DNA from: an uncultured Candidatus Saccharibacteria bacterium | GTDB lineage: Bacteria; Patescibacteriota; Minisyncoccia; UBA6257; 1-14-0-10-40-38 | Assembly (NCBI GenBank): GCA_964434715.1 | Contig: CAYSWC010000001.1 | Location: forward strand, 1-33,036 | Direction of reading: 5' to 3' | Length of the DNA stretch: 33,036 bases | Shown here: one piece after another, positions 1,167 to 24,782 of the stretch | How positions within the stretch are numbered: the first letter of the stretch is position 1 | Layout of the letters: every line of letters begins with the position of its first letter | The notes under the pieces: model-generated | Database searches by the model: none | What the model was told of the DNA's origin: nothing | The model's input: only the letters and a program-made list of their open reading frames with translations | Made by a program: the position numbers and the translations under genes

Positions 1167-4100
1167 TTAGAATCGCCCGCCACTCGGCGGCTCTTGTTTC
1201 AGCCACGGAATAAAATTCACATTATCCGAAACCGGATTGCCCAAGCCGCCGGGGTTTAAGGTCGGATGATAAGGGCCGGTGCGATGCCCCCACCAGTTGT
1301 TTTGGGCAACTACGGAATTTGAACTTGAGTTGTAAATTCCATAAGCGTTATTCCGGTAAATCGAGCTTCGGGAAACGGTGGTGGTGCCTGAAATCTGATA
1401 GATGCCATATTGGTTGCTACTAATTATAGTATTGTCAATATTAACATTCCCACCAAAATTTCTAATCATTCCATCAGCTGGTTGCCAATAGGCACCGCCG
1501 TATCTTAAAACCACATTGTTGAAGAGACCAGTGGAGTTAGTGCCGAAATAAATGCCATGATAATCTCCAGGAGCGGGAGCAGTGGCATTGCCGTCGCCGT
1601 TAGTGTCGCCGCCAACGGAGTCGTCTTTTAAAGAGGTGAAGTAGATTTTGTTGGTGGGGGTAGTTTGAGCGTTGAGGCTGCCTAAGATATTGATGATTCC
1701 GCTAGCAGGAAACTTAACTATGGCTCCGGGTTGGATAGTCAGACTTTTGCCTGAAGCAACAGCAAAGTAGGAAGGAATAAAAGGCACGCCGGGATTCCAG
1801 ATTTGATTGGTTGGTGAAATACCAGATATGAAAAACCCTTGAGCGGTAACTCCGCTGGTAGTATTGCCGGAGTTGATAAAATCAATAGAGCCGTAGGAGA
1901 GATAGGCGTCGCCAGAACTGTTGTTAGAAAAAGTGTTAAAAGTGAGGGCAAGAGTAAGGAAGCCGCCGCCGCCCGTAGATGCGCCTAAACCAAACGAACC
2001 ATTGCCACTAAAATTGCTGTTGGCGATGCTAACACTTGTAGTGGCGAGAGAAAGAATATTGATGCCATCTCTAACGTTGTTGCTGATTAAAGAAGAATTA
2101 ATGGTTAATTGACCTATTGATTGAGTTGTATAGATAAAGATCCCAAAATATCCGCTATCGGTGATCTGACTGTTTATGACACTAACATTTCCCCCAAAGT
2201 TGTTAATCATCCCATAGCCATTTAAATAATAGTTCCCGCCGTAGCGCAAGACTGAATGGGCAAAATTGCCGGTAGAATCTTGTTGAAACCTGATGCCGTG
2301 ATAATCTTCGGGGGCGGGGGTGGTAGCACTGCCATCGCCATTGGTATCGCCGCCCACAGAATCGTCAGTAAAAGAAGTAAAATAGATTTTTTTGTCTGGA
2401 GTTCCTTGGGCGTTCAACGTTCCAGAGACATCAATAAAAGCATCTGAATATAGACTGCTGGGAATGATTTTTACGATAGTGCCGGGTTGAATAGTTAAAG
2501 TCCTGTCTTGATTTACTGTAAAGACATAAATAACGAAGGGAACTCCTGGGTTCCAAACTTGATCTGTTGGCGAAGTTCCGCTTATATAGAAACCTTGCTT
2601 AGCGGTACCGCTGGTGGTGTTGTCGGAATTTATAAAATTTACATCGCCGTTAATACTAGCGTCGCCCGCCTTATTATTAGAAAAAGTGTTAAAAGTGAGG
2701 GCAAGAGTAAGGAAGCCGCCGCCGCCCGTAGATGCGCCTAAACCAAACGAACCATTGCCACTAAAATTGCTGTTGGCGATGCTAACACTTGTAGTGGCGA
2801 GAGAAAGAATATTGATGCCATCTCTAACGTTGTTGCTGATTAAAGAAGAATTAATGGTTAATTGACCTATTGATTGAGTTGTATAGATAAAAATCCCAAA
2901 ATATCCGCTATCGGTGATCTGACTGTCTATGACACTCACATTGCCCCCAAAATTATTAATCATTCCGTAGCCATACCAATAATAGTTGCCGCCGTAGCGC
3001 AAGACTGAATGGGCAAAATTGCCGGTAGAACCTTGTTGAAACCTGATGCCGTGATAATCATCGGGGGCAGGGGTGGTAGCGCTGCCATCGCCATTGGTAT
3101 CACCGCCCACGGTATCATCTTTAAGGGAAGTGAAGTAAATTTTGTTAGCCGATGTTCCTTGTGCATTTAACATTCCGTAAACCTCCATATAAGAATCACT
3201 GTAAAAAGTGCTGGGCATAAATTTTACCACTACACCGGGTTCGATTGTTAAAGTCACCCCGGGATTAACGGTTACGGAAGATTGGATAACGTAAACATTG
3301 CCGGCAGTCCAAGTCGTGTCTTGGGTAATAGTGCCGGAGACGTAAACTACGAAATAGTTTTTAGAAAGCACTAGAGTACCTTCACAAGTATCGCACAAAG
3401 ATTGATCATCCATCGGGTCTGGTGGAACAGAACTACTATTTTGATATAGGACGAAGTGCAGATGGTTCCCCGTTGCGTCTCCAGTCATACCGTTATAACC
3501 AATAATCTGTCCTTTCGAAATTTGCTGACCAACCTGTATGCCGGGTAAGATTATGGGGTCATACTTTAAATGTGCATATCTACTTGTAATTCCGCTACCA
3601 TGATCTAACAAAACAAAGTAGCCGTACCCCGACAGAGGATTCTGCCCGATAAAAGCTATGGACCCGGAATTCACTGCACGTATTGCTTTGCCATCGTCGT
3701 TTTCTATCTGGAGACAATTCTCGTCGAAAACACCATTGAAATCGATAGCATAAAAATCGTTACCTGTATGACCTGGGGGGTCGCCATAATAAGAACCGCC
3801 GCCATAACATCCACTCCCAGCAATCCATCTATAACCACCATTCCAAGGCGCTGATACTGGAATAGGTGCAGCGTAGGCTATCAATGTTTTAAGAAAACTT
3901 TGTGTTTGCTTATTAAAAAAGTTTAAGCTTAAAAATTTCTCAATTAGATCAGGTAGTTCTTTTTCATAATTACGGTCGTCTTCTTTTGTTTCCTCAAAAA
4001 AAACAGCAAACCCCAAAATAAGGTTGGGGGCTTGAAGGTAAATATTAATACGGGAGGGTGTTAGGTTAATGCTGGAATGACTATATAAATATCGCTCTCC

Positions 4101-12678: not shown

Positions 12679-13269
12679 TCACAACCTCCTTTTAATTATT
12701 TGGGCAAGCTGTTCGGGGGCTTTTTGCGGCATACCGTCAATATTCTCGATGTGATGGGAAGGGATTCTAAATGATTCAGACGCCTTCAACATCACCTCAG
12801 TAGACATAAGTTGTGCTCTTTTTATAAAATCAATCTTTTCTCGCAAAGATCTCTGTTCATTACTAAATAGACTACGGTTGATCCTTTTATTGATCAATTC
12901 ATCATAAAGAATCCGCCGCACGATTGATTCTGGGTTACCAATCAAAAGTATAAGTACTCTACAATAACTATACCATAGTCCATAGCTGGGAGCAATCTTT
13001 CCATTAAACACTTTGACGTAATGGGCTGTAACTATGGTTGTTTCTACCCCACTTTCTTTGCTTAAAGCACAGAAAAGATCTGTAAGAGCTCTTTCTTTCA
13101 CTTTCTTTGGAAGAATTCTTAGCTTGACGTAATCGCCGTCAGCGATACCAAGCCACTTCATGAGCTCTGAGGAACCGTCCAGTACACGCACCGATAACCT
13201 TTTCCGAAGCGCTTGTGCAATTGAGGTCTTACCAACGCCATTAACGCCGCCTAGAAAAAGCAAACCCAT
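12679..13269 (-). CDS. P-loop nucleoside monophosphate kinase-like protein (archaeal adenylate kinase-like)
   Basis: LFLGGVNGVGKTS, VTAHY, SIVRRI. Start moved to ATG 13269, which follows RBS AGGAGGA. Confidence 0.8.
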   Translation of the reverse strand: MGLLFLGGVNGVGKTSIAQALRKRLSVRVLDGSSELMKWLGIADGDYVKLRILPKKVKERALTDLFCALSKESGVETTIVTAHYVKVFNGKIAPSYGLWYSYCRVLILLIGNPESIVRRILYDELINKRINRSLFSNEQRSLREKIDFIKRAQLMSTEVMLKASESFRIPSHHIENIDGMPQKAPEQLAQIIKRRL

Positions 13270-13394
13270 TTTATCCTCCTTTTTGTAAATGTTCGTATAA
13301 ACTAATATAGCACGGAGTTCTAAGCATTGCAAATCAAGATTATTTCCTTATCTACTTTTATTTGCTGCCGGGTTTGAATTAACCCCTAAAGGAG

Positions 13395-14480
13395 TTACTG
13401 AATTATCGAATCTAATTTTAAGCTATATCTGCCTGAAGGTGTTTTTTTGCCGGTTGAGATTTGACGAATGAGATAGCACAAAACAGCGCCGCGCAGAAAG
13501 GATGATTCGGCCAACTGCGGTATACCGGCGAGTTTTGAACCAACGAGCAAAAATGACTTCTTTAATCTTTGGGTAAGATATTTCGTCCCCATAAAGTCTC
13601 GCGCCAAAAGCATTTTATTCTTAAAAGGCAAAGTTTTCAGTTTATCGCTCTTTGCAATATCAATTATGGATTGCTTAAGATATCCGCCTAAAAGCGGCAG
13701 CTCTGGATTCTGGTCAAATCTTTCAATATCAATAATCACATTCGGGCCGTTGCCGGTAACCATCACAACCGGGATTCGATACTGCCTGGCTTTTTCTCTT
13801 ATTAAAATTTTAAGCCTTAAATTATCCATCTCTTCAATTAATACATCTGTCCTGGGCTTTAAAAGGAATTCTTCTAGACTATCTGGTTTTATGCCGTCTC
13901 TAAAAACTTCTATTTTTGCGAAAGGATTAATTTCGTAAACTTGCCGCGCGGAAAGCACTGCCTTATTTAAACCGAGATCAGTTATGCTTGCTCTAAATCT
14001 ATTAAAATTGGTAAGCGATAAAACATCATTATCAGCAAATTTCATCTCAAGCCCTCCGCCTTCTAAGGCAAGGCACACTGCCGCCGGGTTGCCCACATTT
14101 AATCCCGCGATGCCGATTCTAAATTGAGCGAACTTTTTTTGGTCAGATGGTAAAACTAAATTTTCATTTCTTGAAGTCTTAAGGCGAAGATAGCTATCTT
14201 TTTCTAGTACATGAACTAAAGACGACTGCCATGAATAGTAAATCCATTTTCCCTGTTTCGGATCATTGCCATACTTTCTAGGTTCTCGCGTAAGAAGTTT
14301 AGGATTTTTAACTAAATCCAATTCTCTAAGCTGTTCAGAAAATTCATCTACGACATTTACAATCTTTTTCTGCTTTAATAAATTTCTTACCTTACTAAGA
14401 TCGTTAACTTTTTTAAAATCAAAAATCAACGGTTTATAAGAGTTATCGCGTGAATTTAGAAATTTACCAAAAATTTTCAT
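13395..14480 (-). CDS. ThiF/E1-like adenylyltransferase, Rv1355c-like, lacking the fused nitroreductase domain
   Basis: WIYYSW...VHVL...SRNENL N-terminal signature, IGIAGLNVG, ADNDVLSLTNFNR, NKAVLSARQVYEINP, EEMD, GIPQLA. Confidence 0.88.
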   Translation of the reverse strand: MKIFGKFLNSRDNSYKPLIFDFKKVNDLSKVRNLLKQKKIVNVVDEFSEQLRELDLVKNPKLLTREPRKYGNDPKQGKWIYYSWQSSLVHVLEKDSYLRLKTSRNENLVLPSDQKKFAQFRIGIAGLNVGNPAAVCLALEGGGLEMKFADNDVLSLTNFNRFRASITDLGLNKAVLSARQVYEINPFAKIEVFRDGIKPDSLEEFLLKPRTDVLIEEMDNLRLKILIREKARQYRIPVVMVTGNGPNVIIDIERFDQNPELPLLGGYLKQSIIDIAKSDKLKTLPFKNKMLLARDFMGTKYLTQRLKKSFLLVGSKLAGIPQLAESSFLRGAVLCYLIRQISTGKKTPSGRYSLKLDSIIQ

Positions 14481-15538
14481 GGTATCAGCTTTGCCTCAAC
14501 CGGATGACGCAAATTCGGCCTCTGTTCAAAATTCATATAACCGACGCAAAATAAAAGCTGTGCTACGAGGCCAGAATTTATAACCTTTTGCACTTGCTTG
14601 TATAAATCACCTATCTCTATTGAAGCTACAAAAATTGAGGTTTTGAGTTCCTTGGAATTTAATTCCAACGTTATCCGCTCAAATAATCTCCCCACCTCTA
14701 GCCAGCTTAAAGGAGAATTCTCTTTGGAGCTGATGATTAGGACGAGCGGTGCGGAACTGATACTTTTGTAATTAAGCGCTCCCACCGCTTTTCCGATATT
14801 AAAAAAACGGACTAGAGTAGGAAAAATCAGAGAAATCAAAGCCGGCATTCTTAAAGAATAACCGGGTATGCCCTCTCTCTTTTTTGAAAAACTGCTGTTC
14901 ATCCAAGAGGACATCTCTTTTCTAAAATTAGAGCTTTGGTAGGCAATTCTTAAACCTTCGGCGGTGAGTGTCGCTAATTTATTTATTTTTTCCTTATCGT
15001 GAACTAAATCGAGCCGTAATTCAGGAAATTTATTATCGAGCGACTGAATTTTTTTAATAATTTCTGATTCAACTGGTTTCTGCTCAAAAATACCTCTGAC
15101 ATTAACTCTTTTTGGTACGGCATCCAAAATATCTGCTAACTCTTTGCTAATTTGTATATCTTTTCTCTCTAAATCTCCGAAAGTAACTTCGGCAACTAAA
15201 TTATCCTTTAAGATATAATTCAAATTTCTAAAAACTTTAAAATAACTTGCAGCCACAATAATATTTTCCAAAAGACAGCCAAAACTTATATAGAGATCTC
15301 GCTTAATTGGATCGGCTTCCTTGATTGTATATTTCTCGGAGTCATAAAAAATCTTGCAAGAGTCATTTTCTATTTTAAAAAGCCAAGGTTGGCTATTATG
15401 CGTTGAAGGGGCTAAAATGCCGTATCGTAAAATAAACTTTATTTTCTCAAAAGGAGCCTTGAGTTTGAAAAAATCACCCTTATTTATATTCCGAAGTTCA
15501 AAATCTAGATTGGACATTAATCTTATTTCTTTACCCAT
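14477..15538 (-). CDS. Acg-type nitroreductase family FMN oxidoreductase
   Basis: LAPSTHNSQPWLF, DPIKRDLYISFGCLLEN, KRVNVR, EVGRLFER. Confidence 0.88.
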   Translation of the reverse strand: MGKEIRLMSNLDFELRNINKGDFFKLKAPFEKIKFILRYGILAPSTHNSQPWLFKIENDSCKIFYDSEKYTIKEADPIKRDLYISFGCLLENIIVAASYFKVFRNLNYILKDNLVAEVTFGDLERKDIQISKELADILDAVPKRVNVRGIFEQKPVESEIIKKIQSLDNKFPELRLDLVHDKEKINKLATLTAEGLRIAYQSSNFRKEMSSWMNSSFSKKREGIPGYSLRMPALISLIFPTLVRFFNIGKAVGALNYKSISSAPLVLIISSKENSPLSWLEVGRLFERITLELNSKELKTSIFVASIEIGDLYKQVQKVINSGLVAQLLFCVGYMNFEQRPNLRHPVEAKLIP

Positions 15539-17028
15539 TTTTGTTTGATGCCAGGTTTGAAGTGAAGCTGATGCTCGGCGGGCCAGAAAACGAGCTTGGG
15601 CAGGGCTCGCTCTTTTAAGAAGTTATAGAGTTCGCGGTATTCCGAGTTTTTAAGCCGGAGATTGGCAACGACCTGGCTCAAAAGTATCTTCTGAACTTTT
15701 TTGGGTATCTTGCGATGTTTGCGAAGTTCAAGATTGACTTCCAGATATTGATTTTGCCGACGATCGTATTTGGTAATCAGGGTAAGCTTTCCGGTAAGGT
15801 ACTTATTCATCGGCGGTTCAATTAAAACCTCGCGAATCGTCTCCGGATAAACTTGAAGACCATAAAGAGTCGTTGCCATATCAACTCGCTCATAGATATA
15901 GACGAAGGGTAATTTATATATAAAATTTGCTATGCCGTGTGCGCGCGCCGACTTAAAGAAATCAATGCCGTGATTTCGGCATTTCTCAATCGCTTCTTTT
16001 AAAGTAAGCACCCCGCCGTGATCCCCGATGCCGTAACGGATAAGCGGTATAGCATTATCGCCAGTAAGAAAAAGTTCCCCTCCCTGTTCATCAAAACTTA
16101 TGAAACGAGGAATATATTGGGCCAGCGTTGGAGTACGCTGGATTTGATGAAAAATATCGGCAAATAGACGCCAACGTCCCATGGCAAGCTGCCGAATCAA
16201 AATACTCGCCGGAGTCTCAAATGCCATCACGCCAATATCGGCGCTGCCGTATATATTCATGGTGTCAAGGAGAGGATTTGTTATATTGACATGTTTCGCT
16301 AGATAGTCACGGAATTTTTCGGTGAAGGCTTCAGCTGCAAAAATAAAGCGAATATTCAACTTCCGGATATTGATACCGTTATGCGGTGCCTCATCAATAA
16401 TATCCTTAAGAAACGGCGCGTAACCTACTAAAATAATCTCTTTGAAATGATTCCCGATCCGCCGTAAGGCATTAAAAATTTCACGCTTGTTAATGCCCGG
16501 CGTAAGTATAGAAACCGGATAGCCGGCCTCGCGCATAAACTCAAACGACTGATAAGTGATCACCCCGCCAATCCAAACACCCATCCCAAAACAAACCAAA
16601 ATAAGAGTTGGTCCCTGCACACTCTTCTCGCTATTCCGAAAAAAAAGCTCGTGCGTCACCGCTGCCTGCCAATCAACTCGATAATCGCGGGCAAAGTAGA
16701 AAGGTTCGCCGGTCGAGCCGGAAGTTGCGGTAAAAACAAGTGGATGCTTAAGCGTACCATCCCAGCAAAGTTTTTCGAACGGGTATTCGCGGAGATAATT
16801 TTTTTTACTGGTAGGCGGTACTAAACGAAGATCGCCTGAAGTCTTAATTTTATCGGGTTGAATCTTGTTTTTCTTCAAAAAATCGCGATAGGCCGGCACC
16901 CGGCGCGCCGCTTCGTGAAATAATTTTATCGGTCGCAACGCCTGCTCACGCAGCCAAAAAGACTCGGGTTTCCGGCGTATAAGCTGGATTACAGCATTGG
17001 TGGCTGTCTGAACCTGATTCACTTTCAT
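15523..17028 (-). CDS. Phenylacetate-CoA ligase (PaaK)-like adenylate-forming enzyme
   Basis: VPAYRDFL, TSGSTGEP, YGSAD and PLIRYGIGDHG adenylation motifs. Confidence 0.9.
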   Translation of the reverse strand: MKVNQVQTATNAVIQLIRRKPESFWLREQALRPIKLFHEAARRVPAYRDFLKKNKIQPDKIKTSGDLRLVPPTSKKNYLREYPFEKLCWDGTLKHPLVFTATSGSTGEPFYFARDYRVDWQAAVTHELFFRNSEKSVQGPTLILVCFGMGVWIGGVITYQSFEFMREAGYPVSILTPGINKREIFNALRRIGNHFKEIILVGYAPFLKDIIDEAPHNGINIRKLNIRFIFAAEAFTEKFRDYLAKHVNITNPLLDTMNIYGSADIGVMAFETPASILIRQLAMGRWRLFADIFHQIQRTPTLAQYIPRFISFDEQGGELFLTGDNAIPLIRYGIGDHGGVLTLKEAIEKCRNHGIDFFKSARAHGIANFIYKLPFVYIYERVDMATTLYGLQVYPETIREVLIEPPMNKYLTGKLTLITKYDRRQNQYLEVNLELRKHRKIPKKVQKILLSQVVANLRLKNSEYRELYNFLKERALPKLVFWPAEHQLHFKPGIKQKWVKK

Positions 17029-17036
17029 TAATCATA

Positions 17037-18122
17037 TTATGCCACAAAGGAGGGGGTTTTTCCATTGAGAAAAATGTCTTCAGCCAAACGATCGGCAACT
17101 CGGTAGGGCGGCTCTCGCCTCTGCTGGGAAAAGAGATAGATGGTGCGGAGCGTATCCCTAAGATGTTCTATCCGGTGCAAAACTCGCTTTTTGTTATAGC
17201 CGCCTTCATCCCGTTCATCCATAACATTGATCAAGCCGCCGGCATTGGCCACGTAATCGGGGACGTAGAAAATATTTCGTTTAAAAAGCAGGTCGCCGAC
17301 TTCTGGCGACGCCAATTGATTGTTGGCCGCCCCGCAAATTATCTTGGCGCTAATTTCATAAACATTCTTGTCGGTAATATCATTGCCCAACGCGCAGGGA
17401 GAAAAAACTTCAGCCGGCTCTCCGTGAATCACCTCGGGATCAGCAACTTTAACTTGAGGGAATCTTGCCTTGACTGCATCGGTGACTGCGGTTTTTATAT
17501 CCGCAATAACGACTTCAGCGCCGGCTCCAACAAGAAGTTTTAATAATTCGGCGCCTACTTTACCGATGCCTTTTATCGCAATCCTGATGTTGAAAAGTTC
17601 ATTGATGCCGGTAATTTCAGCAAGAGCAACCTGAATTGTATAAAAAGTGCTTAGGGCGGCATAAGGCGAAGGATCGCCGGCGACCCCTCTCCGGCCGTTA
17701 AAAAAATCGGATTCTTCAAACATAATCTGCACATCATCTTCAGTAATACCTGAATCTTCGCCGGTTGTAAAAATTCCTTCCAATTTATTGATAATACGTG
17801 CGTAAGATCGAAGTAGTTCTTCGTTTTTATCTTTATCGGGGTTGCCGATAATCACTGCCTTGCCGCCGCCGTGGCGCACGCCGGCCAAAGCACACTTATA
17901 AGTCATAGCGCGGGAAAGTTTTAAAACATCGGCTAGTGCTTCTTTTTCGTTCGCGTAAGGAAACATCCTCGTGCCGCCGGTGGCTGGCCCTAAATTATCG
18001 TTATGAATCGCAATAAAGCCGCGCAAATTGTTTGCGGCATCTTCAAATCGGTAAACCGCTTTGTGGTTATCAAATTCCTGGATATCGGCAAGGTTTTTTA
18101 CCGGTTCCAAAATAGCAGCCAT
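17037..18122 (-). CDS. Leu/Phe/Val family amino-acid dehydrogenase
   Basis: LGPATGGTRM, LSRAMTYKCA, GGGKAVI, TGEDSG, GIGKVG, PCALG, GAANNQL, PDYVANAGG. Confidence 0.93.
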   Translation of the reverse strand: MAAILEPVKNLADIQEFDNHKAVYRFEDAANNLRGFIAIHNDNLGPATGGTRMFPYANEKEALADVLKLSRAMTYKCALAGVRHGGGKAVIIGNPDKDKNEELLRSYARIINKLEGIFTTGEDSGITEDDVQIMFEESDFFNGRRGVAGDPSPYAALSTFYTIQVALAEITGINELFNIRIAIKGIGKVGAELLKLLVGAGAEVVIADIKTAVTDAVKARFPQVKVADPEVIHGEPAEVFSPCALGNDITDKNVYEISAKIICGAANNQLASPEVGDLLFKRNIFYVPDYVANAGGLINVMDERDEGGYNKKRVLHRIEHLRDTLRTIYLFSQQRREPPYRVADRLAEDIFLNGKTPSFVA

Positions 18123-18148
18123 AGAGAATTAAATCTTTATTCGAGGAT

Positions 18149-18198
18149 AGTATAGCACAAAAAAGGCGGCTTTGGGCCGCCTAGGGTTTTTGAGGATT
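18149..18198 (-). promoter_or_regulatory. Terminator-like hairpin overlapping the promoter of the dehydrogenase operon; copy 2 of the ~40-bp repeat
   Basis: Minus strand AGGCGGC-CCAAA-GCCGCCT-TTTTT followed directly by GTGCTATACT (extended -10 at 18154-18149). Confidence 0.6.
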
Positions 18199-18300
18199 AA
18201 CATAATGGAAATTTCTACCTATATCCTCTCGCTTGCGGTTTTTAGAGCCGGGGTGGGTTTTTTATTTTGAGGTGCATTTAATTCTGGTAAGATGACCTAA

Positions 18301-20091
18301 CTAAACTTCTAAAAATCCTCCGGATTGGTGACTCCACAGTTTAGCGTAAAGCCCTTTTTGCTTTATGAGCTTATTATGAGTACTGTCTTGGACAATTTTT
18401 CCTTGGTTAAGAACAATAATCCTGTCCAAGTGTTTTATGGTTGATAGGCGGTGCGCAATGACTAGTGCTGTCTTGTCTTTCATTAGTTCCCACAAGCCCT
18501 CCTGAATATACTTTTCGGATTCCGAGTCCAGAGAACTCGTGGCCTCGTCCAGTATCAGTATTGGAGAATTTTTAAGTAAGGCGCGGGCAATGGCTATTCG
18601 TTGTCGTTGTCCGCCGGAGAGTTTAATGCCACGCTCACCAACCAGTGTCTCGTAACCTTGCCTTAGTTGCGCTATAAATTCGTCGGCATGGGCAAGTTTG
18701 GCCGCCTTTACAACGTCTTCTTTTGAGGCTCCTTCATTGCCGTAAGCAATATTCTCAAAAAGCGACCTATGAAACAAGAGGGGTTCTTGCGGCACGTAGG
18801 CAATCGTTTGACGTAAAGATGCTTGCGTCACCTCGTTAATATTTTGCCCATCAATAGTAATGCTCCCAGATTGCAAGTCAACAAATCTTAGTAAAAGCTT
18901 GGTAATGGTTGTTTTGCCTCCGCCGCTTGGACCCACTAAACCGACTTTCTCTTTAGCTTTAATATCCAAGCTAAAATTATTTAAAAACGAGCCTTTTGTG
19001 TTTTGGTCCCCGCTGTATCTGAAGTTAACCCGGTTAAACTGAATACCGGCAGTAGTTACCTTCAAGGATTTCGCGTTCGGCCGGTCTTGGACCGCCGGCG
19101 GATTAAGAAACATTTGAGTAAATTCGGCGGCTTCACTAATGGAGGACTCAATGTGCCTGTAGGTCCTGCTAACCTCCCATAAGATTCGCGTGACGAGGGA
19201 ATAGTATGAGAAAACAACGATTATCACGCCAGCTTGCAGTCCCAGCCGCTGTACAAAAAAGATGGCCAAAATCAACCCAAAAACGTTGGTTATTACGTAA
19301 ATGGGCGACATCAGAATGTCAAAGCGGAGATTTTGGTAATCCGCGGCTTTCTTAAACTTGGAAGTAAAGTCGTCTACGTAACGTCCATACGCGTCATATT
19401 CCTGCTTCTCTTTAGAAAACGACTTAATAGCCATCATATTTGTCATTGAATCTGATAACCTGCCAGCTGTTTTACTGCTGGCGTCATGCCGAAGAGCGAC
19501 GAGTTTGGAGCGCCGGCGAATAATTGGCAATCCGGCTGTAATCCCAATTACTATCCAGAGAACCAAAACAAGCGGGATCCAGGGAGAATAACGCCATAAG
19601 ACTACTACCGCAAAAAGTATCGGGAAGATGTTGGTGACAACGTTAAAGACCAGCGTATCTGTGAATACTTCAAAACTTCGCCCGAAGGCCAACCCCTTTT
19701 TAGTTAACGAACCGACGAAGTTGTCGGTGTAGAAGTTGTAATCACGCTCCATGAGTCGATGGAAAACGGTTCTGCTCAAACTGTTAATTCCTTTCGTTTC
19801 AATCTTAATCAAGAAATTCATACCAATTCGCCAAAAGGCTTCGCCCAAGAGCCATAACCCGCCAAACAGCAAGATATAACTGCCGGCAGTATTAATTGAA
19901 ATTTCGCCCTGGGCTATAAAAATATTTAAGAGTCTCGCCACTATGAGTGGAGGAACAAAAAATACCAATATTGTGCCTATGGCAGGCAAGAGAAAACCAA
20001 TACCTACGTACCAAGGATAAGTTTTATACTGACGCCAGTAATCACGCAATACCTGGCGTACTGCTTCGCCTGTAATAACTCTTTTCTTCAT
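18301..20091 (-). CDS. ABC exporter, fused permease/ATPase (MdlB/MsbA-like)
   Basis: TM N-terminal half; Walker A GPSGGGKT, LSGGQRQR, ILILDEATS, IAHRLST. Confidence 0.95.
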   Translation of the reverse strand: MKKRVITGEAVRQVLRDYWRQYKTYPWYVGIGFLLPAIGTILVFFVPPLIVARLLNIFIAQGEISINTAGSYILLFGGLWLLGEAFWRIGMNFLIKIETKGINSLSRTVFHRLMERDYNFYTDNFVGSLTKKGLAFGRSFEVFTDTLVFNVVTNIFPILFAVVVLWRYSPWIPLVLVLWIVIGITAGLPIIRRRSKLVALRHDASSKTAGRLSDSMTNMMAIKSFSKEKQEYDAYGRYVDDFTSKFKKAADYQNLRFDILMSPIYVITNVFGLILAIFFVQRLGLQAGVIIVVFSYYSLVTRILWEVSRTYRHIESSISEAAEFTQMFLNPPAVQDRPNAKSLKVTTAGIQFNRVNFRYSGDQNTKGSFLNNFSLDIKAKEKVGLVGPSGGGKTTITKLLLRFVDLQSGSITIDGQNINEVTQASLRQTIAYVPQEPLLFHRSLFENIAYGNEGASKEDVVKAAKLAHADEFIAQLRQGYETLVGERGIKLSGGQRQRIAIARALLKNSPILILDEATSSLDSESEKYIQEGLWELMKDKTALVIAHRLSTIKHLDRIIVLNQGKIVQDSTHNKLIKQKGLYAKLWSHQSGGFLEV

Positions 20092-20111
20092 ATTGTTACG
20101 TGGTTACTTTA

Positions 20112-20258
20112 CTAAAAAAGCGCGCCCGTTGCCACGGCGGCGGCCATCACACTCAAAATAATCAAAACAAACACCCTCGCTTGGTGCGGTTTTAATGCCT
20201 CCTTAATAACCGCAAACGCGGCTTTAAAATCTTCTTTGCTAAGCTTCTGTCTTGCCAT
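20112..20258 (-). pseudogene. Possible N-terminal remnant of a second ABC exporter (48 aa)
   Basis: MARQKLSKEDFKAAFAVIKEALKPHQARVFVLIILSVMAA resembles the elbow helix and TM1 of ABC exporters; it stops 21 nt before the intact transporter. Confidence 0.4.
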
Positions 20259-20313
20259 ATTATACAAACAATATAATTCCTGCTTTATTAAAGCAATGAT
20301 TTCATATTTTAAT

Positions 20314-20350
20314 AAAAAAGACCCGTAAGGTTTGACCTTAAAACGGGTCT
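20314..20350 (-). terminator. Intrinsic terminator
   Basis: AGACCCGT...ACGGGTCT stem followed by a T run, just after the stop of 20359..20571. Confidence 0.75.
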
Positions 20351-20358
20351 CGACATCG

Positions 20359-20571
20359 CTAGCACCAGCCAACAGGGGTGGTTCGAACGGTGGAAAAATC
20401 GCAAACCCATTCGCCGCAGTGCTTGCACCGGCGGCTCTTATGCGGATAAACGCGGCCGCCGCGATCACTGTGATTCCATGATCCTTCACACTGCTTCTCT
20501 TCTCCAAACTCATGTCGCTTGGCCGGCGAGCTCGGACACTCCGGACGACTGAACCAACCGGTCATTTCCAA
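20359..20571 (-). CDS. Small Cys/His-rich putative zinc-binding protein
   Basis: RBS AAAGGAGA upstream and a terminator downstream; C-x7-H ... CKHC pattern. Confidence 0.65.
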   Translation of the reverse strand: MEMTGWFSRPECPSSPAKRHEFGEEKQCEGSWNHSDRGGRVYPHKSRRCKHCGEWVCDFSTVRTTPVGWC

Positions 20572-20648
20572 AATCTCCTTTGTTTCCCCTCACACCGAGA
20601 GAAAACTTCCTTCATTTTAAGGCTGGTGTCGCCTGTTTTGATTTTGGC

Positions 20649-20687
20649 AAAGAACAAACTAGCCCCCGAACTGTTCGGAGGCTAGTT
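20649..20687 (-). terminator. Attenuator terminator (leader 1)
   Basis: AACTAGCCTCCGAA-CAG-TTCGGGGGCTAGTT followed by TGTTCTTT. Confidence 0.75.
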
Positions 20688-20711
20688 AAAGTTTTTCTAT
20701 TTTGTTAGGAC

Positions 20712-20840
20712 TTAGTATTTAGGGCGCTTAGCAAAACTTAAACCAACCTCCGAACCGCCGTAGAGGAAGTAAAAAATAAACCAGAAAATCATGGCAAATC
20801 CCGAGGTCTTTATGAAGTTTTGTCCAATCAAGGATTTCAT
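20712..20840 (-). CDS. Putative attenuation leader peptide MKSLIGQNFIKTSGFAMIFWFIFYFLYGGSEVGLSFAKRPKY
   Basis: Translated by hand. Aromatic run FWFIFYFLY is followed by a 15-nt segment complementary to the terminator 5' arm. Promoter TTGCTT-17-TACAAT upstream; alternative start at 20792. Confidence 0.65.
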   Translation of the reverse strand: MKSLIGQNFIKTSGFAMIFWFIFYFLYGGSEVGLSFAKRPKY

Positions 20841-20982
20841 ACCGGTTTTTTTAATTGTATCAATGTCTATAACGAAAAGCAAGTCAATTAGTTACCTATT
20901 GGCTCCGGTTGACAACTGGAGAAGATCAAACCAAACTTAGGCTAGAACTGCTCGTTAACATAGACATAAAGGAGGTAAACTC

Positions 20983-21948
20983 TTGAAAAAGATAGTGGTG
21001 ATTTGCGGCGGTAGCGGCGCTTTTACCGAACTTAAGGGACTCCGAGACCTGCCTGATCTTGGGATTACGGCAATGCCGCATACGTTTGATTCGGGCGGAG
21101 CACAGGCGCTTTTTTTGAAGCATCACCCGGGATTTGTGGCTGGCGCTGATGCCTACAAGTGTGTAGTGTCGCTTGCTCAAGATCCGATCGGGGCAAAGTT
21201 GTTCAGTTTCCGATTTACCGGCAAGGAAACTGATGGGCTCGCGGAACACAATCAGACAGTCGGCAACATTTTGTTGCTTGCTTTCGAGAAGATGCGTATA
21301 CCTCTTCGCTCGGCCATTGCGTATATGGCAGAGAAGCTTGAACTCCAGCCCCACCATCGAGTAGAGCCAATAGCCATCCAGCGTGCTGATGCCTATTTTC
21401 GTCTCCAAAACGGTCTAGTAATCCGCGGCGAAACGCACATAGACATTCCCCAACACGATGGCAGCATACCAATCAGCGAGACTTGGCTTGAGCCGCCAGC
21501 AGAAGCAAGCCCGATAGCTCTGGAGGCAATCGGCGATGCCGATCTAGTAGTAATCGGGCCGGGCGATCTCTACTCCAGTCTGGTGCCGTGTTTACTGCCG
21601 CGAGGGGCTAAAGAGGCGATTCGGACTGCCAGAGCCAAATTCGTCTATGTGATCAATCTCATGACTAAGTACGGCGAGACTACGGGATTTAAGGCTTCGG
21701 ATTTTGTTGACGTTGTTGAGCGCTATACCGGTCGGCCGATGGATTTTGTAGTTGTAAACACCGGCCGTCCAAGCCCGGAGCTTACTGAACTCTACACCGA
21801 GGAACATGCCGTCCCGGTAGAGAACAACCTTGCCGATCGGCCGGGACAGAAAGTGGTTGCCGCTGATCTTTTGGACACGAGTGAAGGTCCGGCCCGCCAC
21901 CACTCCGAACGGATTGCTCAGACGCTTTTTTCGCTCCTTTCTAACTGA
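20983..21948 (+). CDS. yvcK: YvcK/GlmR family protein (UPF0052, CofD-like)
   Basis: IVVICGGSG, DSGG, VGNILL, GETHID, ADLVVIGPGDLYSSLVP, NLMTKYGET, RHHSERIA; RBS AAGGAGG with TTG start. Confidence 0.9.
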   Translation: MKKIVVICGGSGAFTELKGLRDLPDLGITAMPHTFDSGGAQALFLKHHPGFVAGADAYKCVVSLAQDPIGAKLFSFRFTGKETDGLAEHNQTVGNILLLAFEKMRIPLRSAIAYMAEKLELQPHHRVEPIAIQRADAYFRLQNGLVIRGETHIDIPQHDGSIPISETWLEPPAEASPIALEAIGDADLVVIGPGDLYSSLVPCLLPRGAKEAIRTARAKFVYVINLMTKYGETTGFKASDFVDVVERYTGRPMDFVVVNTGRPSPELTELYTEEHAVPVENNLADRPGQKVVAADLLDTSEGPARHHSERIAQTLFSLLSN

Positions 21949-21955
21949 TGAGACC

Positions 21956-21988
21956 TCGGCGGAGAAAACCCTTCTCCGCCGATTTTTT
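21956..21988 (+). terminator. Intrinsic terminator
   Basis: tcggcggagaa/ttctccgccga stem followed by TTTTTT. Confidence 0.85.
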
Positions 21989-22155
21989 ATTGATAAAAGT
22001 TTAAATTTCGCCGATTTCTTCTTTGACTCGTCAAATCATCAATGTCTCACCGTTTTTGTTAAAACCACCCCTAAATTAATAAATTTTGTGGCTTCTTCCA
22101 CAAAAATAGATTATATTGAATTTATTGTTACTAACTCTAGAATATTATAGATTAG

Positions 22156-22638
22156 ATGAAGCAAATTACAAGGCAGTATACAATTATCAAATCAAATTAC
22201 CGTAAAGGCTTAATTTCTCAAAATTTCGCCCGCAATGTTCTTTCGGGTCTTTCAAAAAAGCAAAAGGCTATTGCTTCAAAATACTTCTATGATGCTCGTG
22301 GTGATAAAATTTTTGAGCGCATTATGAAGCTTAAAGAATATTATCCAACTAGATGCGAATTAGAAATTTTAGAAAATTTTAAAGATGCGATTGCTGATTT
22401 CTTGCCCTATCAACGTTTTAATCTAATAGATCTTGGTCCGGGTGATGGAAGTAAGTCAGAAATCCTGATTAATCATTTTCTAAAAAAGGGTTTGCGCTTT
22501 GATTATGTGCCGATTGATACGATTGTACATTTCCACGCGGGAAATAGTTTCCGAATTAATCCGCGCAATGAAATTGGGATTAGCCGCAATCCAATGAGCA
22601 ACTTCACGTTCTTCTTGAGCAAGTGCCGGGAAAATTGA
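22156..22638 (+). pseudogene. egtD: Truncated L-histidine N-alpha-methyltransferase (EgtD-like); homology ends at about 22518
   Basis: GLSKKQKAIASKYFYDARGDKIFERI...EYYPTRCE, IDLGPGDGSKS, YVPID, then unrelated sequence. Full EgtD is about twice this length or more. Confidence 0.85.
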
Positions 22639-23130
22639 CGTCATAAACCCTGCTTTCCATCCTAAAGATTCAGCCTCGCGTCGTGTCGCGACTAATGTTT
22701 CGCAAACTAGGGCATCGAATTCGTCCTTTTCTTTCCCTACCGCCCTCCGAATTTCCCCATCTTCGCTTTCAAGATCGGCTATGAGAATGATGGGTGACAC
22801 GATTTCAAAAACTTCCTTAACTTTTTTCAGGAATTCTATCTGTTTTTTTGAGAGAAGCGAAACCCCGCCGCTTAGGCCCCGAAACGTGTATCTGCCTTTA
22901 GTGTGAGTGTAATCAGGGCATGATGGCGCCAGGATTACCGGCGGATCCATAAGCAGAGCTCTTCCGATACGCAGGGCCATTTTTCTGCTGCCAGAGAACC
23001 GGCCACAAACGCTGATCAGCCGCGGGAGTTGGGTAATGATTGCGTCGACACCCTCCGCTCGCAGATTCAAACGGCGTATTTCCTGAAGCAGTGCTTTTTT
23101 TAACCGGCATTGATCTAAAGAAAATGCCAT
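22480..23130 (-). CDS. Hypothetical CPDY-motif protein, probably C-terminally truncated
   Basis: RBS AAAGGAGG before ATG 23130; motifs APSCPDY, GRYTF and IILIADLE; the 3' end reads into antisense egtD sequence. Confidence 0.65.
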   Translation of the reverse strand: MAFSLDQCRLKKALLQEIRRLNLRAEGVDAIITQLPRLISVCGRFSGSRKMALRIGRALLMDPPVILAPSCPDYTHTKGRYTFRGLSGGVSLLSKKQIEFLKKVKEVFEIVSPIILIADLESEDGEIRRAVGKEKDEFDALVCETLVATRREAESLGWKAGFMTSIFPALAQEEREVAHWIAANPNFIARINSETISRVEMYNRINRHIIKAQTLF

Positions 23131-23200
23131 TGCTTTTCCTCCTTTCATCCTTAAAAGCACTCCCATTTCCGTGTTGATAAAGTGCTGTCCGCGTTTTCCT

Positions 23201-23233
23201 AAAGAAAACGCCCGCTTTCGAGAAGCGGGCATT
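23201..23233 (-). terminator. Attenuator terminator (leader 2)
   Basis: AATGCCCGCTT-CTCGA-AAGCGGGCGTT followed by TTCTTT. Confidence 0.8.
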
Positions 23234-23263
23234 ATGTTGCGTAAATCTGGTTTTCAATAAAAT

Positions 23264-23347
23264 TTATTTAACCAGCACAAAGCTCGCTCCTCGAAAAAAG
23301 AGCGAGTACCACCAAGACTGTGATTTATTTTTCCTGTAATTATACAT
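23264..23347 (-). CDS. Putative Trp/aromatic attenuation leader peptide MYNYRKNKSQSWWYSLFFRGASFVLVK
   Basis: Translated by hand. Tandem TGG TGG at 23314-23309; overlapping 1:2, 2:3 and 3:4 stems; promoter TTGACA-18-TATACT ends 8 nt before the ATG. Confidence 0.72.
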   Translation of the reverse strand: MYNYRKNKSQSWWYSLFFRGASFVLVK

Positions 23348-23388
23348 TTTATTTCAGTATATGCTTAATCATTTGCTCTTGTCAACAA

Positions 23389-24782
<1,394 letters not shown>

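Follow-up and report, generated by a model that had tools for sequence, protein, structure and literature searches.

What role is played by a short open reading frame (ORF) rich in phenylalanine codons that sits between a promoter-like sequence and a terminator-like hairpin, upstream of a gene for a small cysteine-rich protein? The question is raised by a locus on the minus strand of a 33,036-nucleotide (nt) stretch of DNA from an uncultured Candidatus Saccharibacteria bacterium (contig CAYSWC010000001.1, positions 1 to 33,036; this whole stretch is called the window below), which we refer to as the Phe-rich element. An earlier note on the same DNA had proposed that the downstream gene is controlled by translation-coupled antitermination. 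Based upon the layout of the locus, its rarity within the genome, and the predicted switching of its RNA, we favor the interpretation that the Phe-rich element attenuates transcription through a leader peptide and its translating ribosome, in the classical four-segment manner and with regulatory codons of the phenylalanine/aromatic type. To this interpretation we assign a probability of roughly 55%.

The 42-codon minus-strand ORF described in the earlier note is indeed present, and its FWFIFYFLY stretch corresponds to residues F19 to Y27, such that seven of nine residues encoded at consecutive codons are aromatic. Such a density is rare in this genome, as six or more aromatic residues in nine were found in only 9 of 8339 short ATG-initiated ORFs genome-wide, and two of those nine are nested starts of the leader ORF itself. 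An alternative in-frame start at ATG 20792 would yield a peptide of 26 codons. When the comparison was confined to the 924 intergenic short ORFs, 64 were followed by a terminator-like hairpin, and the leader ORF was alone among these 64 in reaching at least six aromatic residues in nine. The putative promoter would leave a 5' untranslated region of only ~6 to 7 nt between the predicted transcript start and the leader ATG (20840), and an extended -10 element (TG-a-TACAAT at 20862-20854, with the TG at 20862-20861) can be recognized by eye. The leader also has no Shine-Dalgarno (SD) sequence. Across the whole genome, an SD core was found upstream of 86 of 603 long ORFs compared with 89 of 603 control windows placed inside genes, which amounts to no enrichment. 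Thus, SD-independent initiation appears to be the rule here and the missing SD is no argument against translation of the leader. A 16S 3'-end pattern was looked for in the assembly and was not found. Strong SD-like elements do precede the genes located behind two leaders in the window, namely AAAGGAG for the 68-amino-acid (aa) gene behind the Phe-rich leader and AAAGGAGG for the gene behind a sibling leader with tandem Trp codons, which is described below; the genes behind the Trp leaders of two relatives (L057 and L058) likewise have strong SD-like elements.

The earlier note had further described a 15-nt complementarity, including two G-U pairs, between 20755-20741 within the leader ORF and the terminator 5' arm at 20687-20673, and this was confirmed. 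The terminator hairpin itself, which our scan listed as terminator-like, has 14 pairs (seven G-C and one G-U) and a loop of 3 nt. Using the nomenclature of classical attenuators, the antiterminator arm is the core of segment 2, the terminator 5' arm belongs to segment 3, and the leader stop codon (20714-20712) falls inside the loop of the 2:3 helix. The 2:3 duplex has a predicted energy of -23.8 kcal/mol versus -10.5 +/- 2.2 kcal/mol in dinucleotide shuffles of the 181 nt upstream, with none of 2000 shuffles reaching -23.8. As a genome control, the 5' arms of all 302 terminator-like hairpins in the 793-kb genome (a 0.79-Mb assembly at 86% completeness) were each scored against their own upstream 182 nt, and the Phe-rich element ranked first of 302, at -21.3 kcal/mol compared to -18.9 kcal/mol for the next. 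The runner-up, in which the complement lies 24 nt away, belongs to a hairpin at 5136-5102 (minus) of contig C8 and could be another alternative-structure element. When folded as isolated hairpins, the 1:2, 2:3, and 3:4 helices of the minus strand have energies of -26.4, -32.0, and -22.0 kcal/mol, while their plus-strand equivalents are weaker at -20.1, -26.0, and -18.6 kcal/mol. Such a difference is expected if the G-U pairs matter; the plus-strand 3:4 hairpin loses strength because G-U pairs turn into C-A mismatches there.

A further component of the locus, absent from the earlier note, is segment 1, which is predicted to pair with segment 2 and thereby to serve as an anti-antiterminator. The 1:2 duplex has an energy of -29.4 kcal/mol versus -18.9 +/- 3.0 kcal/mol in shuffles, 5 of 2000 of which reach -29.4. 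In the unconstrained fold of the transcript 20847-20649, the probability of the terminator, P(terminator), is 0.88 and P(antiterminator) is 0.07; the model favors the terminator in the free RNA because segment 1 sequesters the antiterminator arm. The minimum-energy fold of a longer RNA (20850-20560) is the 2:3 form, and therefore the 2:3 and terminator states are close in energy. According to these predictions, the locus has the full classical 1:2, 2:3, and 3:4 layout with three mutually exclusive helices, and the ORF spans segments 1 and 2. To represent a translating ribosome, a footprint from -12 to +14 around the P-site codon was forced unpaired, codon by codon. With the footprint at codons 3-18, P(antiterminator) was 0.96-0.98, and it was 0.77 at F19, 0.59 at W20, and 0.60 at F25, while P(terminator) was 0.87-0.95 with the footprint at codons 21-24 and 26-39. 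The ON window up to W20 was unchanged across four footprint sizes. Because this plain model allows helix 1:2 to close around a ribosome in its 30-nt loop, which is physically doubtful, we added a steric rule requiring any loop that encloses the ribosome to retain a minimum of 20, 30, or 40 free nucleotides. With this rule, P(antiterminator) did not fall below 0.72 when the ribosome was placed at codons 3-25, and it was 0.00 at codons 26-43, the stop codon included. Under the steric assumption, the predicted boundary between the ON and OFF states thus lies between F25 and L26, where the aromatic run ends. The translation-coupled antitermination proposed in the earlier note is accordingly supported in silico, and both segment 1 and the masking folds strengthen it.

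If the Phe-rich element is an attenuator, it could operate as follows. Transcription would begin just upstream of the leader ATG (20840). As long as the RNA is untranslated, segment 1 would hold segment 2, segment 3 would pair with segment 4, and the terminator (20687-20657) would stop transcription before the 68-aa gene. A ribosome slowed on or before F19-W-F-I-F-Y-F25 would either cover segment 1 or occupy the 1:2 loop. The freed core of segment 2 (20755-20741) could then pair with the terminator 5' arm (20687-20673), such that no terminator would form and polymerase would continue through the 68-aa gene. Once a ribosome has moved beyond the aromatic run, it would cover segment 2 and the terminator would form. 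The signal would most likely be a shortage of charged tRNA-Phe, and less so of charged tRNA-Trp and tRNA-Tyr. The coordinates of the component parts, together with those of the sibling Trp leader and its copies in relatives, are collected in Table 1.

Table 1. Features of the Phe-rich element and of the related Trp leaders. Positions are those of the window, except for the copies in relatives, which are numbered on their own loci.
Feature	Position	Strand	Remarks
Putative promoter	20854..20882	minus	TTGCTT 20882-20877, 17-nt spacer, TACAAT 20859-20854
Leader ORF, 42 codons plus stop	20712..20840	minus	ATG 20840, stop 20714-20712, without Shine-Dalgarno
Segment 1 (candidate anti-antiterminator)	20792..20828	minus	codons 5-17; partner is segment 2
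Aromatic run F19 W20 F21 I22 F23 Y24 F25 L26 Y27	20760..20786	minus	loop between segments 1 and 2
Segment 2	20727..20760	minus	codons 27-38; core 20755-20741 is the antiterminator arm; partner is segment 1 or segment 3
Segment 3	20673..20699	minus	20687-20673 is the terminator 5' arm; 20699-20690 lengthens the 2:3 helix
Predicted intrinsic terminator (3:4)	20648..20687	minus	5' arm 20687-20673, 3' arm 20671-20657, then tail TGTTCTTTG
SD-like AAAGGAG	20575..20581	minus	9 nt before ATG of the 68-aa gene; unusual in a genome without SD enrichment
Downstream gene, 68 aa	20359..20565	minus	six Cys, C-terminal CxxC motif, orphan
Second intrinsic-terminator-like hairpin	20314..20349	minus	bulged stem followed by T6, immediately behind the 68-aa gene; seen by eye, unlisted by the scan owing to the bulge
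Candidate tandem-Trp leader attenuator	23385-23198 (element 23347-23207)	minus	directly after the TrpRS gene; 2.5 kb from the Phe-rich element
Trp leader copies in relatives	L057 ~1308-1475; L058 ~1316-1480; L056 ~2170-2340 (minus)		upstream of 216-aa gene homologues

The Trp leader lies directly behind the gene for tryptophanyl-tRNA synthetase (TrpRS) and consists of TTGACA, an 18-nt spacer, TATACT, 8 nt, a 27-codon ORF (23347-23264) with W12 and W13, a hairpin, and a terminator. Like the Phe-rich element, it places a promoter close to a short ORF without an SD, followed by a hairpin, a terminator, and then a gene with a strong SD. In the masking folds, its P(terminator) of 0.88 drops to 0.05-0.16 when the P-site is placed at codons 11-14, and at no other position. 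The 216-aa gene behind this leader has homologues in three of 300 other genomes of the order, and upstream of each homologue there is a short ORF containing tandem Trp codons, together with a terminator. Two of these leader copies align with the one in the window, with a compensatory replacement of one G-C pair by A-U in the first hairpin, and the same two show a predicted switch that is specific to the Trp codons. The third copy is divergent, with a free P(terminator) of 0.01 and a tRNA-Trp(CCA) gene between the leader and the gene. Considering the predicted Trp-codon switch along with its conservation, leader-peptide attenuation appears to operate in this lineage, and the existence of a conserved Trp-type leader raises the prior for the Phe-rich element. 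The Trp-type sibling is the better supported of the two; the Phe-rich element was encountered only once and is not conserved. The 216-aa gene itself (22480-23130, minus) belongs to no family, has few homologues, and is without their C-terminal part (~60-70 alignment columns). Its 3' end overlaps an opposite-strand, 160-aa fragment (22156-22638, plus) of a histidine-specific methyltransferase-like ORF, an arrangement that resembles a rearrangement scar. A profile built from the 3-sequence alignment of this family gave no match when run against the genome contigs.

According to the earlier note, two attenuators of unrelated sequence but the same logic would point to a general mode of regulation for accessory genes, responsive to aromatic codons or to stalling. 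The first part holds to the extent that the sequences are unrelated and both leaders switch in masking folds, but the Trp leader has a narrow ON window and is conserved, whereas the Phe-rich leader has a broad ON window and no relatives. The generalization was not borne out. Of the 64 candidates in this genome that pair a short ORF with a terminator, 54 had a free P(terminator) of at least 0.7 and five of these switched in the masking test, two of them being the Phe-rich and Trp leaders. The remaining three look spurious: one is antisense to a tRNA-His gene, one is apparently the 3' end of a gene, and one switches at a single codon. A generic switch scan of 23 relatives' loci produced nine candidates and no switches, and it missed the two Trp leaders that are predicted to switch in their own masking folds. 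Its sensitivity is therefore limited, and the two good cases in this genome should be read as a lower bound. In addition, no comparable leader was seen when the DNA preceding the conserved dehydrogenase and ligase genes (see below) was inspected in 20 relatives' loci. Within this genome, the Phe-rich and Trp leaders thus form a local pair, rather than a general mode for accessory genes.

Comparison with known systems places the Phe-rich element closest in form to the enterobacterial phenylalanine leader. At gathering thresholds, no Rfam family matched anywhere in the window, and neither a T-box nor a riboswitch was detected at the locus even at E<=10. The best sub-threshold matches among 4227 families were Phe_leader (RF01859; 24.8 bits, gathering threshold 55) and His_leader (19.4 bits, gathering threshold 49). 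The Phe_leader match spans the full model (1-125) with an E-value of 0.039-0.09 for 301-701 nt searched, which represents a likeness of form and not membership in RF01859. As in the pheL leader that precedes pheA, Phe codons are clustered within a short ORF of the Phe-rich element, and its alternative hairpins overlap and end in an intrinsic terminator. It differs in that its 42 codons mix Phe, Trp, and Tyr, in that an orphan Cys-rich gene rather than pheA lies downstream, and in that its host genome is tiny and without SD enrichment. The pheL genes are described as short with runs of Phe codons (PMC3082878), and regulatory codons in ribosome-mediated attenuation have likewise been treated (PMC1183508). 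Among the hallmarks of the class, a codon-run ORF, a terminator, an exclusive antiterminator, and a sequestering segment 1 are all found in the Phe-rich element.

What the Phe-rich element would control is probably a single gene, as the second terminator-like hairpin stands right after the 68-aa gene. The earlier note had called this gene zinc-finger-like. Its six Cys residues and C-terminal CxxC motif agree with that description, but the protein has no Pfam or NCBIfam match, nothing meaningful in Pfam even at E<=10, and a predicted local distance difference test (pLDDT) score of 60 in an AlphaFold model from the single sequence. Searches for relatives returned three weak matches limited to the CxxC motif among 301 genomes of the order (E 0.004-0.006), eight weak motif-level loci in metagenome contigs, none of which is syntenic, no candidates in a word-indexed search, and only unnamed clusters, all sub-0.9, in a protein atlas. 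The same CxxC motif is seen in longer metagenome proteins, within N-terminal stretches that resemble zinc ribbons. Behind the terminator, the spacer that leads up to the 68-aa gene contains a 17-codon ORF (20614-20562, minus; 31 codons if counted from TTG 20657) whose TGA overlaps the ATG of the 68-aa gene (ATGA), for which translational coupling and chance are both possible. Two genes downstream of the leader is an MsbA-like ABC exporter, and just before it lies a 48-aa ORF (20264-20112, minus) with an ATG abutted by TATAAT and a strongly hydrophobic C-terminal segment. The latter is possibly a leaderless small membrane protein, and its sole Pfam hint is a weak Imm17 match (E 0.072).

The Phe-rich element lies in DNA that is specific to this lineage. 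In two relatives of the same family (L027 and L030), the TrpRS gene is directly followed by an ELFV-type dehydrogenase gene and a PaaK-like ligase gene, and a third (L029) has an intervening ABC gene. In this genome, a 5.3-kb lineage-specific insert (18122-23389) parts TrpRS from the dehydrogenase and ligase and contains both leaders, a CofD-family gene, small ORFs, and the ABC exporter. A search with TrpRS itself returned 80 loci spread over many phyla, among which the best Patescibacteria matches were 71% identical. The insert bears signs of rearrangement, namely the shortened 216-aa gene and its overlap with the truncated methyltransferase ORF. Beyond the insert, a row of minus-strand genes (12679-18122) encodes a ScyB-like ELFV dehydrogenase (292 bits, below the cut-off of 600), a PaaK-like ligase that is present in 9 of 11 genomes of the family, an Acg-type flavin mononucleotide oxidoreductase, an Rv1355c-like ThiF protein, and a small kinase-like protein. 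This composition suggests aromatic metabolism, possibly the salvage of an aromatic acid or amino acid.

Conservation offered little help in judging the Phe-rich element itself. When the DNA of 20340-20960 was compared with 40 relatives, only a 28-nt match at chance level was found. For the leader peptide, a word-indexed search gave no candidates, an exhaustive phmmer search gave no matches at E<=0.001 among 1,835,955,588 representatives, and the protein atlas gave no usable match. Because metagenomes often leave very short ORFs uncalled, the absence of the peptide is weak evidence. Across four DNA runs of one study, the sequence of the element was identical, with no variants. Three further runs of this study yielded only one short, low-depth contig apiece (170-196 nt), identical in sequence and lying within 20679-20979, a region that comprises the leader ORF, the promoter, and the upstream spacer.

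A number of these findings weigh against the attenuator interpretation. As the searches uncovered relatives for neither the peptide nor the RNA nor the 68-aa gene, covariation and conservation lend it no support. The promoter TTGCTT-17-TACAAT is present as given in the earlier note, but it is weaker than described there, since its -35 hexamer matches the consensus at only three of six positions and it is consequently absent from the list of our consensus scan. The U tract of the terminator, TGTTCTTTG, is interrupted, and the hydrophobicity of the leader peptide's core (mean Kyte-Doolittle value of 1.76 over 15 residues) would suffice for a membrane helix. Energetically, equilibrium folds of growing transcripts indicate that 2:3 ousts 1:2 once segment 3 emerges from the polymerase (P 0.92-0.98), and a ribosome-free OFF state would therefore need 1:2 to be kept by a kinetic trap. 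When the steric rule is omitted, a ribosome at the stop codon still favors the antiterminator (P 0.6-0.96). The predicted ON window is also broad, as it includes the non-aromatic codons 3-18, and hence the aromatic codons are not singled out. On the side of the controlled gene, the class would lead one to expect a relationship with the sensed amino acid and there is none; nothing connects the 68-aa gene with aromatic amino acids, a separate terminator-like hairpin stands behind it, a promoter-like match of 8/12 (ATCAAA, 17 nt, TAAAAT) is visible by eye between the terminator and the 68-aa gene, and the dehydrogenase and ligase genes sit behind further terminators and probably outside the controlled unit.

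The breadth of the ON window also bears upon the identity of the signal. The RNA switch could be exactly as described while responding to a general slowing of ribosomes, caused by translation inhibitors or stress, rather than to aromatic supply. In the fold model, a stall anywhere from codon 3 to ~25 gives the same antiterminator outcome, so the predicted switch does not establish aromatic specificity. The 68-aa gene is not an amino-acid gene, and an MsbA-like ABC exporter lies two genes downstream. A precedent exists in the BmrB leader of Bacillus subtilis, which reportedly precedes the BmrCD ABC exporter and responds to ribosome-targeting antibiotics through ribosome-mediated transcriptional attenuation (PMC4191407). 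Both leaders would represent leader-peptide attenuation outside amino-acid biosynthesis with an ABC exporter nearby, except that the Phe-rich leader is parted from its exporter by another gene and a terminator-like hairpin. That hairpin, along with the TATAAT between the 68-aa gene and the exporter (both seen by eye), argues against a BmrCD-like arrangement. Furthermore, seven aromatic codons among nine are extreme for this genome, the run ends at the predicted ON/OFF boundary, and the sibling Trp leader is clearly codon-specific in its folds. Overall, we consider it unlikely that general ribosome slowing is the signal.

A second explanation, which we judge to be just as improbable, is that the ORF is an independent gene that encodes a small hydrophobic membrane peptide, either a microprotein or a peptide resembling a type I toxin, with a constitutive terminator; the long-range pairings would then contribute to mRNA stability or to translational locking, and a promoter of its own would drive the 68-aa gene. 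The hydrophobic core of the peptide, its net charge of +4, and its basic C-terminus fit this explanation, as does the arrangement of promoter, short gene, and terminator as a self-contained unit with the weak promoter-like match before the 68-aa gene. Type I toxin-antitoxin peptides similarly combine a short hydrophobic peptide and a basic C-terminus with a structured mRNA and its own terminator. The Phe-rich leader differs from these in that it has no family match, its alternative pairing aims at the terminator arm rather than the ribosome-binding region, and the consensus scan listed no antisense promoter-like site on the plus strand within 20571-20882. The earlier note had held that a conserved stand-alone membrane microprotein would speak against attenuation, and no homologous peptides were found, which is weak evidence for the reason given above. 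More importantly, a stand-alone peptide gene does not account for the genome's best complement to a terminator 5' arm, nor for the sequestering of that complement by segment 1. One and the same locus could fill both roles.

It is very unlikely that the hairpins are real but not read by a ribosome, with an incidental ORF and a protein, RNA, or ligand setting the switch, or that the locus is a decaying functionless remnant: an open 42-codon frame is not rare in itself in AT-rich sequence, the peptide has a low protein-language-model recognition score (1611, compared with the 2300 reached by 91 of 100 known proteins), and the locus lies in a rearranged insert, but no Rfam family reached its threshold, no T-box or riboswitch was detected even at E<=10, and the ORF spans exactly segments 1 and 2, places its stop in the 2:3 loop, and has the most aromatic run among the intergenic short ORFs. 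Two further candidates were rejected. An arrest peptide of the MifM/SecM type does not suit the leader, as its hydrophobic segment would, in a peptide of 42 residues, still be within the exit tunnel at the stop codon. The leader peptide was also considered as the precursor of a ribosomally synthesized and post-translationally modified peptide; the nearby ThiF-like and nitroreductase-like genes belong to the Rv1355c and Acg families, and terminators lie in between.

Leader-peptide attenuation is a textbook mechanism in Proteobacteria, where it governs amino-acid biosynthesis. Our full-text searches found no literature joining it with Patescibacteria or the Candidate Phyla Radiation. In the present case, the same predicted architecture is seen in a 0.8-Mb genome without SD enrichment, situated before non-biosynthetic genes. 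As a tentative and rather doubtful extension of the attenuator interpretation, these ultra-small, probably symbiotic groundwater bacteria, which are unable to make aromatic amino acids, might use attenuators as supply gauges that switch on accessory genes rather than biosynthetic ones. There may be two types of gauge, a conserved tandem-Trp type and an orphan Phe-rich type, and the Cys-rich 68-aa protein, the tiny membrane protein, and the ABC exporter could together constitute a starvation-triggered secreted effector module. If this is true, it would imply tight coupling of transcription and translation in a lineage with reduced ribosomes and no SD usage. If the Phe-rich element is real, reduced bacteria would use coupled transcription and translation as an amino-acid gauge, and leaders of this kind would provide a handle on the expression timing of orphan genes that are otherwise uninterpretable.

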